A stretch of DNA of 47,769 nt from Promethearchaeota archaeon (GTDB lineage Archaea; Asgardarchaeota; Lokiarchaeia; Sigyniarchaeales; SOKP01), in NCBI GenBank assembly GCA_019057795.1, contig JAHLWS010000081.1:1-47769 (forward strand). Reading direction: 5' to 3'. The position numbers and the translations under genes are program-made. The first letter of the stretch is position 1, and every line of letters starts with the position of its first letter. Below the pieces are notes generated by a model, which did no database searches, was not told where the DNA came from, and saw nothing but the letters and a program-made list of their open reading frames with translations. Below are positions 26,899 to 32,548 of this stretch, in pieces.

Positions 26899-28008
26899 TT
26901 ATTTAAGAGGGTACGTTCCTAAGATTTTTTGCCAAATAACGCTTGATTTCATTTGCTCGAGCGCTTTTTTCGCTTTAGGATCGTTTTTGTCAGCTTCAAA
27001 ATCCATAAAGAAGATGTATTCCCACCTTCCTTTTTTTCTTGGTCTAGACTCGATTTTTGACAAATTGATCTCAGCGTCTGAAAATATTTTTAAAACCCAA
27101 TATAAAGCTCCAGGTATGTGTTTAGTTACAAACACGATTGATGTTTTCATTTTTTCAGCTTTTAATGGATTTTCTAATTTAGAAATAATTAAAAATCTTG
27201 TAAAGTTAGAAGGGTCATCTTCTATATTCGAGTTCAGAACTTTCAAATCGTATATACTCGCAGCAAAATCAGTGCCAATCGCCGCATAAGATTTATCTGC
27301 TAACTTTTTAATTCTTCGCATAGCTTCGGCAGTTGAGCTAATATCCATTAAATTTGCATTTGGTAAGTTGCTTTTTAGCCACGATTTGGCTTGAGCAAAC
27401 GCTTGGGGGTGTGAAAAAATGTTTTTTATGAGAGAAATTTCTGATTCTTTTAAGCCTATTAAATTCTGGATGACTCTCAACTCGACTTCTCCGTGAATAA
27501 ACAGTTCCTTTTCAATAAATAAATCGAGCGTCTCTCGCACGGTTCCATAAAAGCTATTTTCAATCGGGACAATCCCGTAATCTAATATATCTTTTTCAAC
27601 ATTATCAAAGATCTCTGAAGTTGAGTTGCACGGAATGAATTGTGTTCCAGCTTTAGCAAAAGACTCAAGGGCTGCCTGGTGCGTGAAAGTGCCCATTGGG
27701 CCTAAATATCCGACTTTAGTAACTGTGTCTTGAATAGCCTTACTTGCACTAATAATTTCTTTCCAGATGGCTTCCATACTTTCTTTTTCGAATATTGTTG
27801 ATTTATTTTTGATTCTCTCGATTATTTCCATTTCCCTTTTGGGTTGAATTATTTCTAAATTCAGATCTTTCTTTAAATTTCCAATTTTAATTACGATGTT
27901 TCCTCTTTTATTCAACAGATCAACGATTTGATCGTCAATTTCGTTAATTCTTTTTCTGGTCTCTTCTAAATCTTCTTTATAATTCTGCTCTTTCCTCAAA
28001 TTAATCAC
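26899..28008 (-). CDS. pheA: bifunctional chorismate mutase/prephenate dehydratase with ACT domain
   Basis: AroQ N-terminus (R..I..ID), YLGPMGTF, PIENS, SHPQA, NFTRF and ESRP motifs. Confidence 0.92.
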   Translation of the reverse strand: MINLRKEQNYKEDLEETRKRINEIDDQIVDLLNKRGNIVIKIGNLKKDLNLEIIQPKREMEIIERIKNKSTIFEKESMEAIWKEIISASKAIQDTVTKVGYLGPMGTFTHQAALESFAKAGTQFIPCNSTSEIFDNVEKDILDYGIVPIENSFYGTVRETLDLFIEKELFIHGEVELRVIQNLIGLKESEISLIKNIFSHPQAFAQAKSWLKSNLPNANLMDISSTAEAMRRIKKLADKSYAAIGTDFAASIYDLKVLNSNIEDDPSNFTRFLIISKLENPLKAEKMKTSIVFVTKHIPGALYWVLKIFSDAEINLSKIESRPRKKGRWEYIFFMDFEADKNDPKAKKALEQMKSSVIWQKILGTYPLK

Positions 28009-28054: not shown

Positions 28055-29731
28055 TTACAAAAGTTTTTGCAAATTTAATTCTAATCCGGCAACGGGGAAC
28101 TCCAGTTTAAAGTTTAACAATACTTCTGGATGGATTTCTCCAATCTCTCCAACTTTTTTACCATTTACATAGATATCTCCATAACGACCGCTAATATAGC
28201 TAGGGTTCTTCCCGGGCTTAATTTCATATTTATCATAAAGCCCAAGAGCAGTCATTATGAAATCTAAAGTCGACCTTATTTCTGTAAAATCAGCGTCTTC
28301 GTGGTACGATGTCGCTGAAAGGTGAATTTCTCTTTTTGCGCCGGTTTCTTCTTCTTTCGAAAGTAAAACGACATCTCCAACTTCAAAAATTCTAATTGGT
28401 TTCTCTTCGGATCTGTTAAATCGTATCGTTTCCATTAATTTAGGCAGTATTGAAGTTCGCGTGGTATCGTATTCTTTTGATACAGGGTTAGCAATATGAA
28501 TTAATTTGGATTCATCAATTTTTTTTTTCATATAATCGAATTGTTTTTCAGAATTTGATAAAATGAAATTAAGAACTTCTAAATATCCTGCTCCAACCAT
28601 AATTCTTCTTATTTTATTAGAGAACGATTGAATAGGGTGATATTCTCCTACGCATCCTTCTCGAATGGTTTTTGGTAAATTAAAATAACCATAACCGATC
28701 GCAACTTCTTCAGTGAAATCAACTGGATGCATTATGTCACCTCGAAAGGCAGGAACATAAATGTCTAAATATCCTTTTTTCTTGGATCTTTTAGCCTCCA
28801 TCCTACATTTTTGAAAACACTTAATCATTTCAGCGATTGATAAATTCAGACCAATGTAATCGTTAATGTAGTCAATTTCAACTTCCCATTTTTTTGAATC
28901 TAAATTTGGGGTATTAATTTCTTTTTCTCCTTCATAATTTACTTTAACACTTTCAATTTTCGCTCCCATGTCTGATAAAGTCGTAGATAAGATGTTTAAA
29001 GCAAGATTTACGGCGTTAAAATCGGTACCAGTCAAATCTAAGAATAGATTTTTCGTTTCTTCAGTTACAGTTGTAAGAACTCCGTTTATTATTGGAGGAA
29101 ACGAAAGAACTTCGTTATTGCTATCAAAAATTACTGGGTAAACTTCTTTCCCTTCTAAAATGGGAGCGTATTCAATGCCTTTATCGTGAAGCAGTAAAAT
29201 TTCTTCTAAGTTCATGGAATACCCATCTCCATGCAAAGGCGTAAAACTTACTGAATCTGGTTCCACGGCAGTATATCTGTATGGGGGTTTTACTTTGTCT
29301 AAGTCGTGTACTCCAATCGCAACTTTCTTTCTATCTCTTCCAATGGCCCAGTGAAGGTGCTCTTGAATGGTCATTAAGGTAGCTACCTCGTCCTCATCTA
29401 AATCAATATCCCGAATTATTCCACATACTATGTAAGGTCTTACTTTTTTTACGCTAGGGTCTACATTCATCACAATATCACTTGGTGTTATGTCGAATGA
29501 AGGTACACCTAGTTCAATTTCGTAATAACCTTTAAGAGTCCTCGCTATACCTTCTGGACTAGAGAAATCAGGTCGGTTTGGATTATACTCAACTTTAACT
29601 TTTTGTTCTTCCTCGTTAATATCTTCCAAATCTAAACCTATCCACTGCAAATCGTACTCTAATTCTTTTAGATCTAATTTTTTTCCAACTAATCTTTCGA
29701 GTCTTTCAATTTTTAATTCGAGTGTTGGTAT
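28055..29731 (-). CDS. pheT: phenylalanyl-tRNA synthetase beta subunit (archaeal type), ATA start
   Basis: NRPD, AIGVHD, LSFPPIIN and GEIHP motifs; frame extends to ATA CCA ACA (matching the usual MPT N-terminus) 6 nt after GAGGTGA. Confidence 0.92.
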   Translation of the reverse strand: MPTLELKIERLERLVGKKLDLKELEYDLQWIGLDLEDINEEEQKVKVEYNPNRPDFSSPEGIARTLKGYYEIELGVPSFDITPSDIVMNVDPSVKKVRPYIVCGIIRDIDLDEDEVATLMTIQEHLHWAIGRDRKKVAIGVHDLDKVKPPYRYTAVEPDSVSFTPLHGDGYSMNLEEILLLHDKGIEYAPILEGKEVYPVIFDSNNEVLSFPPIINGVLTTVTEETKNLFLDLTGTDFNAVNLALNILSTTLSDMGAKIESVKVNYEGEKEINTPNLDSKKWEVEIDYINDYIGLNLSIAEMIKCFQKCRMEAKRSKKKGYLDIYVPAFRGDIMHPVDFTEEVAIGYGYFNLPKTIREGCVGEYHPIQSFSNKIRRIMVGAGYLEVLNFILSNSEKQFDYMKKKIDESKLIHIANPVSKEYDTTRTSILPKLMETIRFNRSEEKPIRIFEVGDVVLLSKEEETGAKREIHLSATSYHEDADFTEIRSTLDFIMTALGLYDKYEIKPGKNPSYISGRYGDIYVNGKKVGEIGEIHPEVLLNFKLEFPVAGLELNLQKLL

Positions 29732-29747: not shown

Positions 29748-31283
29748 TTAATATGGTTGTTGCCTTAGCCATTTGATTGGATTAACATACAAATCTCTAA
29801 TGTCCTTCCGACCATAGTATAACATTGCTATACGCTCAAGTCCTTGACCCCACGCTAAAACGCGAGTGGGTTCTTTGATGCCCCAAGGATACGTTACTTC
29901 AGGCCTAAATATTCCTGAACCTCCCATTTCTAACCATTCTCCTATTTTATCGTAATATACAGAAACTTCCATACTTGGTTCGGTATACGGAAAAAACCCC
30001 GGTCTTGTAATAATTTTTTCAAATCCCATTTTCTTGTAAAATTCTGATAATAAACCGATTAAGTCGCTTAAATTTACGTGGTCGTCAATTACGATGCCTT
30101 CTATTTGAGTGAATTCAGCTAAATGTGATTTATCTAATTTTTCGTTTCGGAAAACTCTATCGATACAAAACACTTTTACAGGCGTTTTTTCGTTATCTCT
30201 ATAAAATTTAGCCAGACGCCTTATAGTTGTGGCAGTTGTATGGGTTCTTAATACTGTTTGTTTTGCAACATTTTCGTCCCATTCATAACCCCATCCAAGC
30301 GAATTAGAATCGCCCCCATTTTCGTGTGTAGCTTTAACAGCCATTACTTTATCTTTCTCCGGCAACTTCGCGATTTTTGGATTGTTTAAATAGAATGTGT
30401 CTTGTAGTTCGCGAGCAGGATGGTCTTGCGGTTGAAATAACGCGTCAAAGTTATAAAATGCACTTTCTACGATCGGTCCTCTTATTTCCGTAAAACCCAT
30501 CGAAATAAAAATCTCTCTGATTTCATTAATGAGATTAACAAGAGGATGGTATTTTCCCCCTTTCAATGAAGGTCCTGGTTTGGTCACATCAAATGCTTTT
30601 AAATTGTAATCTTTCCAAGAGCCAGTGCTGAGCATCTCCGAGGTGAGTTTGCTTACTTGCTTTAACTCTTTAATCTCAGATAATTTTATATCTCTACCCT
30701 TTTTTGTTAGAAAAATAATTCGTTGCGTTTTTTTTGCTTTTCTTATTAATTTCCTTTTATTTAGAAGGTCTAGGCATTCCAATTCATATTTTGATAATTT
30801 AGAATAGTTAAGTATTGGGCTCTTTTCGAATTTTTTCATAAATTTTTCAACTTCTGTTGTGGGGAACTCTTCAGCAACGAGAAAAATCTTGTTTTCTCCT
30901 GTAGCCTTACTTTGAGCAATCCAACGATTCTTCTTCATGTTAGAAAGACCAACGTAAAAAATCTTTTTGTCTAATTTAGATTTATTAAGGAAATCTGTTA
31001 TGCTAATCTCTTTAATGTCAGATTCAATCAATAAATTAAGCAACCTACGCTCCGGTAATTTAATTTCTAAATAATTTAACCCCTCATCGTTTAAAGATAT
31101 TTGATTTATTTCTTCTTCTCTGAATCCACCTAAATTTTGATCGATGAGATCGTTAATAGCTGCCATGAGAACTATATAATCAACATTTAATTCTTTTGCT
31201 AATTCTATTGCCATAAGCTCTGTGCTTTTACTCTTCAGAACTTTAAGAATTTCTATAACTTGTTTCTTTAATTTAATAGTCAT
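29748..31283 (-). CDS. pheS: phenylalanyl-tRNA synthetase alpha subunit (archaeal type)
   Basis: NFDALFQPQDHPARE, LRTHTT, FRNE, FPYTEPS and GLERIAM motifs. Confidence 0.96.
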   Translation of the reverse strand: MTIKLKKQVIEILKVLKSKSTELMAIELAKELNVDYIVLMAAINDLIDQNLGGFREEEINQISLNDEGLNYLEIKLPERRLLNLLIESDIKEISITDFLNKSKLDKKIFYVGLSNMKKNRWIAQSKATGENKIFLVAEEFPTTEVEKFMKKFEKSPILNYSKLSKYELECLDLLNKRKLIRKAKKTQRIIFLTKKGRDIKLSEIKELKQVSKLTSEMLSTGSWKDYNLKAFDVTKPGPSLKGGKYHPLVNLINEIREIFISMGFTEIRGPIVESAFYNFDALFQPQDHPARELQDTFYLNNPKIAKLPEKDKVMAVKATHENGGDSNSLGWGYEWDENVAKQTVLRTHTTATTIRRLAKFYRDNEKTPVKVFCIDRVFRNEKLDKSHLAEFTQIEGIVIDDHVNLSDLIGLLSEFYKKMGFEKIITRPGFFPYTEPSMEVSVYYDKIGEWLEMGGSGIFRPEVTYPWGIKEPTRVLAWGQGLERIAMLYYGRKDIRDLYVNPIKWLRQQPY

Positions 31284-31337
31284 GTCTTAAAATCAAAATC
31301 ATTTTACTTTTCGTTATATTTTTTCTAAATCTTTAAC

Positions 31338-31353
31338 CTTTTTAAATCTTTCG
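31338..31353 (-). promoter_or_regulatory. candidate BRE/TATA promoter proximal to pheS
   Basis: Minus strand CGAAAGA-TTTAAAAA about 55-70 nt upstream of the pheS ATG. Confidence 0.45.
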
Positions 31354-31357
31354 TGGA

Positions 31358-31443
31358 ATTAATCGTTTTAAATTGCTCGTTCATGAATTAGAACGATAGC
31401 TTAGGATTAACTAAAGTATACAATTAATTATAAAACGATCAAC
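31358..31443 (-). promoter_or_regulatory. candidate multibranched RNA structure upstream of pheS
   Basis: GUUGAUCGUUUUA/UAAAACGAUUAAU closing stem; inner UUAG/CUAA and UCGUUC/GAACGA hairpins. Confidence 0.45.
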
Positions 31444-31460
31444 TCTTTTAAATAACCGCA

Positions 31461-31502
31461 GCCAAGGGAAAGAAATTAAAATAATTTAGTTATTCCCTTG
31501 GC
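31461..31502 (-). promoter_or_regulatory. GC-rich inverted repeat/hairpin overlapping the leader ORF stop
   Basis: Perfect 10-bp stem GCCAAGGGAA/TTCCCTTGGC; inner AAATTA/TAATTT. Confidence 0.7.
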
Positions 31503-31579
31503 AAAATAAAGAAGTTAAAGATAAATGAATCTTTGTAGAATTGTTTTGAATTGAGTAATAAATAACTAAAAAGTTTCAT
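31490..31579 (-). CDS. putative Phe-rich leader peptide (29 aa)
   Basis: MKLFSYLLLNSKQFYKDSFIFNFFILPRE*; same strand as and upstream of pheS-pheT-pheA. Confidence 0.55.
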   Translation of the reverse strand: MKLFSYLLLNSKQFYKDSFIFNFFILPRE

Positions 31580-31647
31580 AATATACTCTTCTCAAATATT
31601 CAATAACTATAAAATAAAATATCAATATTCACTAAAAAATTTTCCTA

Positions 31648-32085
31648 CTATAGTTTTTCGCGAAGCGCTGTCGAACTCAAGATATTTTTATTCCGATCTT
31701 TTATCATAGGTATGACAATAATTATTAATGGTGTGAAACTCTTGCTTTCCCTGATTTCGTTTATTTTTAAGGCGTTTTTATAAGTCTCTTGACTGGCAAT
31801 GATTCCTTCATATTCTGGTTCGTGAACTGGAGGCCCATATGGGTCGTTTAACGGAATTATTTCAACGCGATTCAAATGTCCTATTGAATCTATAAAAGCT
31901 TTCAGGTTTTGTTCTCTAGTTTTGTAGTTTTCGATTTTTACGGCGTGCTTTTTTTTTTTAAGTAAATCTTCTGTTGTTAAACCTATAACAATCTTTTTAG
32001 AAAATAATAACGCCGTTTTAATTAGAATCTTATGTCCATCATGGAGATGATCAAAAGTTCCGCCCATTCCGACTTTATTAAAAAT
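31648..32085 (-). CDS. coaD: phosphopantetheine adenylyltransferase (archaeal type), probable ATT start
   Basis: GGTFDHLHDGH, DPYGP, SQET and LSST motifs; first strand FNKVG lies upstream of ATG 32067; ATT at 32085 follows AAGGTG. Confidence 0.88.
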   Translation of the reverse strand: MFNKVGMGGTFDHLHDGHKILIKTALLFSKKIVIGLTTEDLLKKKKHAVKIENYKTREQNLKAFIDSIGHLNRVEIIPLNDPYGPPVHEPEYEGIIASQETYKNALKINEIRESKSFTPLIIIVIPMIKDRNKNILSSTALREKL

Positions 32086-32110
32086 TTGGGAAACACCTTA
32101 CTATAAAGAA

Positions 32111-32548
32111 TTAGACCTTAACTTTTTCCTCAACTTTCTTCTTTTTTTCGTCAGTTTTTTTGGTATCTATTGTAGGCTTTTTTAACCTGACGTTGTAAAT
32201 TTGTTTTATTCTCATTGATTCGTTGCATTTATCGCATGAGCCAATTTCTTTAAATACATAATCTCCATGTTCGTAATGTCTTACATTAGTTATATTACAC
32301 AAATTACAAGCAAGTATCGTTAATGTTTGTCTAATTGGCTCTGGTATCTGCTTTTGAATTTGAATTAATGAAGTACCTACACAAATTAACGAAAAACCTA
32401 TTATTAAATTGGTCATTTGATTTTCTCCACCAAGGTAAATAAATAAAGCACCTACACCTATTAATAAAATTAATAAAATATTCTTCAGTACTTTCTTGAG
32501 AGAAACGCTCTTATTTAAGATGTCCTCATCATTTTCGTCATCAATCAT
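32111..32548 (-). CDS. two-TM membrane protein with zinc ribbon
   Basis: Two hydrophobic helices; CNLC...GDYVFK...CDKC. Confidence 0.7.
   Translation of the reverse strand: MIDDENDEDILNKSVSLKKVLKNILLILLIGVGALFIYLGGENQMTNLIIGFSLICVGTSLIQIQKQIPEPIRQTLTILACNLCNITNVRHYEHGDYVFKEIGSCDKCNESMRIKQIYNVRLKKPTIDTKKTDEKKKKVEEKVKV

Follow-up and report, generated by a model that had tools for sequence, protein, structure and literature searches.

Sensing of amino-acid supply through leader peptides is a textbook device of bacterial gene regulation, and in Escherichia coli both pheM-pheST and pheL-pheA are leader-peptide transcription attenuators. Here we describe a locus of comparable design from an Asgard archaeon, namely the spacer upstream of pheS, the gene for the alpha chain of phenylalanyl-tRNA synthetase (PheRS), in a Promethearchaeota genome (GenBank assembly GCA_019057795.1, contig JAHLWS010000081.1). 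The whole stretch of DNA that was analysed, 47,769 nucleotides (nt) in length, is referred to as the window, and coordinates below are those of the window unless another contig is named. The spacer holds a short, Phe-rich open reading frame (ORF) whose last codons form one arm of an RNA hairpin. Judging from comparison with related genomes, we consider it fairly probable that this ORF is a Phe-responsive, cis-acting leader peptide, i.e. a translated ORF that would report the supply of Phe-tRNA(Phe) to the genes pheS-pheT-pheA.

The likeness to pheM and pheL lies in a short Phe-rich ORF, placed on the same strand and upstream of the genes for PheRS or of the gene for chorismate mutase/prephenate dehydratase, with a hairpin immediately after it. 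The proposed logic is also alike, in that scarcity of Phe-tRNA would raise both charging and synthesis. The Asgard leader differs from the E. coli ones in its host and in standing, as one leader, ahead of pheS, pheT and pheA together. It has a single conserved hairpin with a coding 5' arm and a loop that starts with the stop codon, whereas no alternative helices of the 1:2, 2:3 and 3:4 kind were found and the U-tract is inconsistent. Furthermore, a conserved block resembling a transcription factor B recognition element (BRE) and a TATA box is situated between the hairpin and pheS, and there was no match to any leader in Rfam.

T-box riboswitches are the usual RNA control of aminoacyl-tRNA synthetase genes in Firmicutes. 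The proposed system resembles them in that an aminoacyl-tRNA synthetase operon would be controlled by tRNA charging; unlike them, the Asgard leader has a conserved ORF, is devoid of the specifier-loop architecture and has no T-box match in Rfam. The E. coli TnaC and the fungal arginine attenuator peptide sense tryptophan and arginine, respectively, as nascent peptides. They share with the Phe leader a conserved peptide C-terminus close to the stop of an upstream ORF, but they respond to the free amino acid, by way of the peptide inside the tunnel, and lack a run of cognate codons, whereas such a run dominates the Phe leader. Polycysteine ORFs of mycobacteria form a further group for comparison, and we know of no conserved hairpin that encloses their stop codons. 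These leaderless short ORFs are reported to tune downstream genes of the same amino-acid pathway; they are similar to the Phe leader in having runs of one codon, in being possibly leaderless and in having no textbook terminator/antiterminator pair, and dissimilar in being bacterial and in sensing Cys (bioRxiv 10.1101/834739). A full-text search of the literature retrieved work on bacterial leader peptides, and neither control by an archaeal leader peptide nor a leader of an archaeal aminoacyl-tRNA synthetase operon.

A Phe-rich ORF conserved upstream of pheS

The leader ORF is located on the minus strand at 31490..31579 (ATG at 31579, TAA at 31492-31490) and consists of 29 codons plus the stop. 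In the source genome it encodes the peptide MKLFSYLLLNSKQFYKDSFIFNFFILPRE, with six Phe, four of which fall within codons 19-24 (31525-31508). This cluster of Phe codons, F-I-F-N-F-F (31508..31525, minus strand), is the candidate regulatory segment; the family consensus at this place is F-F-F-x-F-F. The original prediction had described the minus-strand ORF (31579-31490) with its six Phe, a perfect 10-base-pair (bp) stem (here at 31502-31493/31470-31461) with its last codons as the 5' arm, a TTTTATA ahead of the leader ATG and the downstream genes as pheS-pheT-pheA. All four were recovered as claimed, the last by Pfam matches for all three products.

Phe content as such does not distinguish the ORF from its surroundings. 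Among 2506 intergenic ATG ORFs of 20–45 amino acids in the source genome, 6% reach the Phe fraction of the leader and 2.6% have both at least six Phe and four Phe within six consecutive residues. Phe density alone is not significant; it lies inside the tail of the background, as the original prediction had feared, and is not used as support here. Small ORFs with a GC hairpin enclosing the stop are rarer, numbering 34 genome-wide, and the stem of the Phe leader ranks second best among them. The case rests on the conservation seen among sequences of relatives, which far exceeds chance, and not on statistics of a single genome.

Searches with PheS yielded 23 loci from the same genus, in which pheS is 70–95% identical and the spacers measure 344–364 nt in almost all cases. 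All 23 have an ORF of 27–34 codons with the same end point and the ending ...SF(I/F)FxFF(I/N)LPR(E/D)-stop; they begin with ATG or TTG at a single position, and their N-terminal sequences are unrelated between loci. A covariance model, R1, was built from the last 15 leader codons and the hairpin. It matched 104 of 135 genomes of the family, once per genome, comprising 11 of 13 genera and 30 of 36 high-quality genomes, and was without matches in six further families of the class, represented by 24 genomes. Those misses that were examined are assembly gaps (pheS at a contig edge in G061, no pheS found in G128), with the genus g12 as a separate case, discussed below. In addition, 10 further contigs carrying the motif were detected in a metagenome scan. 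The original prediction had proposed aligning the pheS upstream regions, and the upstream ORF and its stem are indeed kept across 11 genera, always ahead of pheS-pheT(-pheA).

The position of the unit is similarly constant. The leader element lies 196–228 nt before the pheS ATG in all 38 fetched matches from other genera with enough contig, bar one (135 nt). On the upstream side, 42 of 63 loci have the cytidylyltransferase gene as neighbour and the others have a different gene or none; where this neighbour differs, the leader unit stays with pheS. On the other side, all loci that extend far enough have pheT 3' of pheS, and pheA comes directly after pheT in 8 of the 10 family genomes inspected for it.

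Across these 63 loci, the 25 codons before an invariant CCA codon are stop-free in the frame of the ORF in 61 cases, while the same stretch is stop-free in 16 and 1 loci in the other two sense frames and in 5, 16 and 1 loci in the antisense frames. A stricter test of the frame was confined to codons -26 to -16, which are outside the R1 model, unconserved and fall into 40 sequence clusters at 65% identity. Here, the ORF frame is stop-free in 60 of 62 loci versus 9 and 13 in the other sense frames, which average 1.2–1.7 stops in this A/T-rich stretch. An in-frame ATG, GTG or TTG occurs 20–37 codons ahead of the CCA codon in 59 of 63 loci, and the stop codon (TAA in 48, TGA in 7 and TAG in 8 loci) occupies the same codon position in 55. 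As far as aligned sequences can tell, this comparison shows a leader ORF kept open by selection throughout the history of a Lokiarchaeial (Promethearchaeia) family, with its N-terminus free to vary.

The codons for Phe are concentrated near the end of the ORF, where they account for 233 of 378 codons at positions -8 to -3 (62%) as compared with 60 of 930 at -26 to -12 (6%). Both TTT and TTC occur at most of the Phe positions; codon -3, the last Phe, is TTT in 63 of 63 loci. The consensus of the leader end reads Q-D-S-F-F-F-K-F-F-I-L-P-R-E-stop.

The hairpin at the end of the leader

The conserved RNA hairpin (31461..31502, minus strand) has a perfect 10-bp stem and a loop of 22 nt. Its 5' arm, GCCAAGGGAA (31502-31493), consists of the leader codons (L)PRE and its 3' arm is TTCCCTTGGC (31470-31461); the leader stop codon opens the loop, and a conserved, single-stranded UGCGG (31456..31460, minus strand) follows immediately 3' of the stem. 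Both arms are essentially unique in the source genome (4.95 Mb, 31% G+C), and a repeat or a mobile element was rejected on this ground.

In 64 aligned sequences, 98.1% of the cells in the stem are paired. One pair is GC in 35, AU in 13 and GU in 13 sequences, another is GC in 56, GU in 4 and AU in 2, and four pairs are invariant. The covariation score of the stem was above 500 of 500 shuffles and above every slid control. An A in the 5' arm is found only opposite U, and a G opposite C or U, so that exchange is tolerated only in the pheS-sense RNA. The loop varies from 15 to 29 nt across loci, which argues against a (dimeric) DNA operator. A search of 30800-32200 against Rfam with cmscan (E up to 10) detected no leader family, i.e. 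neither Phe_leader nor other amino-acid leaders, and no T-box; the two matches obtained were at chance level and to unrelated families.

A Trp-specific unit upstream of trpB2

A screen of the source genome (G000) for mini-ORFs with runs of a single residue revealed a 16-codon Trp-rich ORF, MVTKDILFCWQWPWRS, on the minus strand of contig C53 (61813-61863; L101/L102), 169 nt before a trpB2-type gene. The Trp ORF is present in 23 of 30 family loci, with 3–5 Trp, at 139–178 nt before trpB2 and with the pattern M(A/V)T...W(R/Q)WQWPWR(W/F)(R/Q). A GGCGTT/AACGCC hairpin has the last Trp-Arg codons of the ORF as its 5' arm and the stop in or at its loop, and a covarying helix, TGGTTTA/TAAACCA (TGATTTA/TAAATCA in some loci), brackets the ORF. 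The Trp and Phe leaders are alike in their run of cognate codons, in having the last codons in the 5' arm of a hairpin and in the distance of 140–230 nt to the structural gene downstream. They differ in length (16 codons for Trp versus 29 for Phe) and in the shorter stem of the Trp leader, and the Trp leader has the additional bracketing helix, of which no counterpart was found in the Phe leader.

Only the Phe and Trp units were convincing in a crude screen of G000 for other single-amino-acid leaders, and no cognate leaders were seen in this genome before two genes for class-Ib synthetases (TyrRS/TrpRS) or before that for prephenate dehydrogenase. It should be noted that the trpB2-type frame (C53:60615-61643, minus strand) encodes 344 amino acids in the source genome and 459–494 amino acids in relatives; the short frame may reflect a frameshift, a split gene or an assembly error.

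Another possible explanation for the conserved peptide end, on which the Trp leader also has a bearing, is a nascent-peptide arrest sensor. The C-terminal ...FFxFF(I/N)(L/P)PRE would then act in the exit tunnel and stall termination on free phenylalanine or another ligand, and the signal would not be a shortage of charged tRNA. This would be in line with the conservation of the C-terminal dozen residues as far as the stop (among them Pro-Arg-Glu/Asp and, often, Pro-Pro), next to a free N-terminus, and with the fixed position of the stop. However, the P-R-E codons double as the 5' arm (CCA in 63 of 63 loci, Arg encoded only by AGR), so that their conservation cannot be told apart from that of the stem, and in the genus g12 the ORF ends ahead of the P-R-E codons. 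Runs of cognate codons are a hallmark of tRNA sensing, and the Trp leader, whose peptide ends differently, follows the same codon-run logic. An arrest peptide is, in our opinion, improbable.

Proposed mode of action

Taken together, the open ORF, the Phe run, the hairpin, the fixed site before Phe genes and the Trp parallel are best explained by a ribosome-read sensor of Phe-tRNA. Under scarcity of Phe-tRNA, the ribosome would stall when either of the two final Phe codons occupies the A site. These codons are positioned 8–11 nt before the stem; when the A site is occupied by the last of them, the start of the stem is 8 nt further 3' and still within the mRNA channel, so that the stalled ribosome would cover the first bases of the 5' arm and block the hairpin. 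Transcription, or survival of the RNA, would then continue into pheST-pheA, on top of the basal level provided by the proximal promoter. If Phe-tRNA is plentiful, the ribosome would reach the stop codon and leave, the hairpin would form and the leader transcript would end there. The nearby U-run present in many lineages would assist this ending, perhaps together with an archaeal termination factor, for which aCPSF1/FttA is named by pure inference. Alternatively, the hairpin could exert its effect on RNA stability or on the downstream promoter.

The output step is proposed with much less assurance than the sensing itself. Transcription attenuation by occlusion of the hairpin is a tentative suggestion, and we are similarly doubtful about its full form, a minimal, antiterminator-free, ribosome-mediated attenuation in Asgard archaea that would set the transcription of PheRS and Phe-biosynthetic genes atop a basal promoter.

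Promoter-like elements of the spacer

The motif AAAATTTTTTAG (31632..31643, minus strand) is conserved about 55–60 nt before the leader start. It travels with the leader, being retained also in loci with an upstream neighbour other than the cytidylyltransferase gene, and is either a promoter or TATA-like element of the leader or an insulating oligo-T terminator. Closer to the ORF, the TATA-like TTTTATA (31608..31614, minus strand; found at 31614-31608) lies 29–35 nt before the leader ATG. Most loci have a TATA-like element at a comparable distance, and the spacing fits a leaderless transcript, or one with a very short leader. The sequence TTTGAGAAGAG (31586..31596, minus strand; family motif CTTGAGnAGA) is a candidate weak Shine-Dalgarno-like or promoter-proximal element; relatives with TTG starts have GAGATGA/GAGAAGTG variants 8–10 nt upstream. 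A CTTGA/TCAAG pairing around the ORF start was considered and rejected, being below 85% pairing.

Downstream of the hairpin, some 50 variable bases precede a near-palindromic motif (31375..31393, minus strand; consensus yCTAATTcAAGATAGAGc), which is present in 1–2 copies, keeps a constant ~115 nt from the pheS ATG and may serve as a binding site for a transcription factor ahead of the promoter of pheS. No multibranched RNA fold was recovered as a consensus structure for 31358-31443. The BRE/TATA-like block, cRAAAgATTTAAAtA ... ATTTAGAAAaAATATA (31311..31356, minus strand), is the best-conserved part of the spacer throughout the family; the original prediction had raised, as a caveat, that a proximal BRE/TATA might drive pheS, and this caveat was well founded. 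In the source genome, TATA-like motifs peak at -35 to -30 and at -80 to -60 from start codons, and with its position at -63 the pheS block is in agreement with an ordinary leadered promoter, making it the probable proximal promoter of pheS. Its conservation suggests a basal, leader-independent expression of this essential enzyme.

The presence of two promoter-like elements bears on the possibility that the ORF is an independent micro-protein gene. Its 29-residue hydrophobic peptide would have a function of its own (e.g. associated with PheRS or with the membrane), the hairpin would be its terminator, and the linkage to pheS would be mere neighbourhood. The selection on the ORF to stay open and its own TATA-like element are what one would expect of such a gene, as is the separate conserved promoter-like block ahead of pheS. 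Nevertheless, only the Phe-rich C-terminal third of the peptide is conserved, while the rest varies freely in sequence and character, and the spacing to pheS is constant. An unrelated micro-protein would not be expected to be enriched in the very amino acid with which the three downstream genes are concerned, or to have a Trp twin before trpB2; moreover, most loci have a weak U-run behind the stem or none, in contrast to the T6 further 5', which is well preserved. We regard an independent gene as quite unlikely.

Observations at variance with the proposed sensor

A number of results weigh against a Phe-tRNA sensor that acts through attenuation, the first group of them concerning termination signals and alternative structures. 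A run of at least five T was found within 25 nt 3' of the stem in 21 of 63 loci (33%); in control windows the figure is 8%, and this excess in itself speaks for the proposed leader. Another 15 of 63 is the count of loci with such a run immediately 5' of the 3' arm; the source genome has neither, with only T3 after the stem. A U-run after the stem is missing in two thirds of the loci, including the source genome. Archaeal RNA polymerase, to our knowledge, is not known to need hairpins for termination. A scan for bacterial-type promoters and terminators returned 0 terminator-like sites and was uninformative.

When the complete spacer was folded with RNAalifold to look for alternative helices such as an antiterminator, just the one hairpin was recovered, and a column-pair scan of 34 distinct loci gave only weak U:G/A pairings of the Phe codons with AAGGGA and no conserved antiterminator. 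The competing pairing GAAUAACU/GGUUAUUU of the original prediction is present in the source sequence but is not conserved in relatives. A long-range helix in the minimum-free-energy fold of the source sequence, pairing the Phe tract (31522-31507) with 31344-31329, was also tried and rejected: its duplex energies in 62 loci were no better than those of shuffles (mean z -0.33), so that this pairing is compositional. As a whole, the attenuator proposed in the original prediction is retained in its conserved Phe-cluster ORF and stem, with an analogue before trpB2, and not in its antiterminator, which was not found, or its U-tract, which is inconsistent; pheS also very probably has a promoter of its own.

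The second group relates to transcription of pheS. Given the conserved promoter-like block and the palindromic motif between the hairpin and pheS, the latter can be transcribed without the leader. In the metatranscriptome X19, contigs of a 97%-identical relative cover 31124-31385 only and nothing over the leader, bearing in mind that contigs can define neither ends nor absence. These contigs, with a depth of about 81–118, comprise the first 160 nt of pheS and ~100 nt upstream, through the promoter-like block; one 71-nt piece folds back at 31345-31385. This might be a sign of either the 5' end of an RNA or a stable 5' fragment close to 31385, a point situated upstream of the predicted TATA. X19 is the only true RNA library with the locus, the libraries X18 and X20 being probably DNA.

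The third group concerns the nucleotide sequence itself and loci with a defective-looking ORF. The Phe codons are rich in U, and some constraint at the nucleotide level is evident from codon -3, which is TTT throughout. GCCAAG, CTTGGC and the trailing UGCGG are invariant in 63 loci, though compensatory changes would be neutral; this invariance, unexplained by pairing alone, hints at a further sequence-specific partner, which might be a protein, tRNA or rRNA. The genus g12 (L137-L139) has a degenerate form of the element: the hairpin CCCAAGAGA/TCTCTTGGG is kept about 190–230 nt before pheS and followed by T5, and the promoter-like block is intact, whereas the ORF terminates immediately ahead of the stem (...SLFFI-TAG) and lacks a canonical start. 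In L004, a close relative with 94% identical pheS, a deletion of ~80 nt removes the leader start together with the upstream elements; the remaining frame extends back into the end of the upstream gene and has no ATG, GTG or TTG. Both cases indicate that the hairpin can persist without an intact ORF.

These two cases also suit a non-coding element, in which the hairpin alone would be functional (as a terminator or insulator, a protein-binding RNA, or a processing or stability signal) and the ORF a by-product of the U-rich flank. The nearly invariant stem, followed by the conserved UGCGG, agrees with such an element, and since no such family is present in Rfam a novel RNA motif is possible. It is, however, difficult to reconcile with the coding signature, as for an incidental frame one would expect neither the absence of stops from an A/T-rich, unconserved stretch in 60 of 62 loci nor the retention of a start codon and of a stop that varies in sequence at a fixed position. 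The unit furthermore follows pheS and not the upstream gene. We hold a purely non-coding element to be very unlikely, and the Phe-tRNA-sensing leader peptide remains our preferred reading.

Genes of the locus and tRNA genes

The spacer extends from the cytidylyltransferase-like gene (32067-31648) to pheS (31283-29748), both on the minus strand, and measures 364 nt with 22.5% G+C. The pheS gene (29748..31283, minus strand) encodes the PheRS alpha chain of 511 amino acids (Pfam PF01409, E 4.6e-89). It is followed on the same strand by pheT for the PheRS beta chain (28055..29650; PF17759, B5 and B3_4), the true start of which may be further upstream, and by pheA (26899..28008), for which Pfam indicates a chorismate mutase - prephenate dehydratase - ACT arrangement.

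A gene for tRNA-Phe was not found in the source assembly by aragorn, run with and without introns, or by a regular-expression search. It had been sought in view of a speculative T-box-like or tRNA-mimic role, in which the conserved UGGC-UGCGG would make contact with a tRNA. Aragorn recovered only 14–18 tRNA genes altogether from this assembly, which is rated 100% complete; intron-containing or otherwise atypical tRNA genes are the likely cause of this low number.

Implications for Asgard archaea

The comparative evidence for the Phe leader is unusually clean, with ~100 genomes, 40 clusters of N-terminal sequences and a second, Trp-specific unit of the same design. Being short and mutable, the leader offers a concrete element with which archaeal termination and coupling can be tested. 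If the proposed reading is true, the coupling of ribosome and RNA polymerase in these archaea would be tight enough for regulatory use, and a switch could be built from one hairpin without an antiterminator. It would also mean that regulatory upstream ORFs, a major mode of control in eukaryotes, existed in the lineage that gave rise to them.

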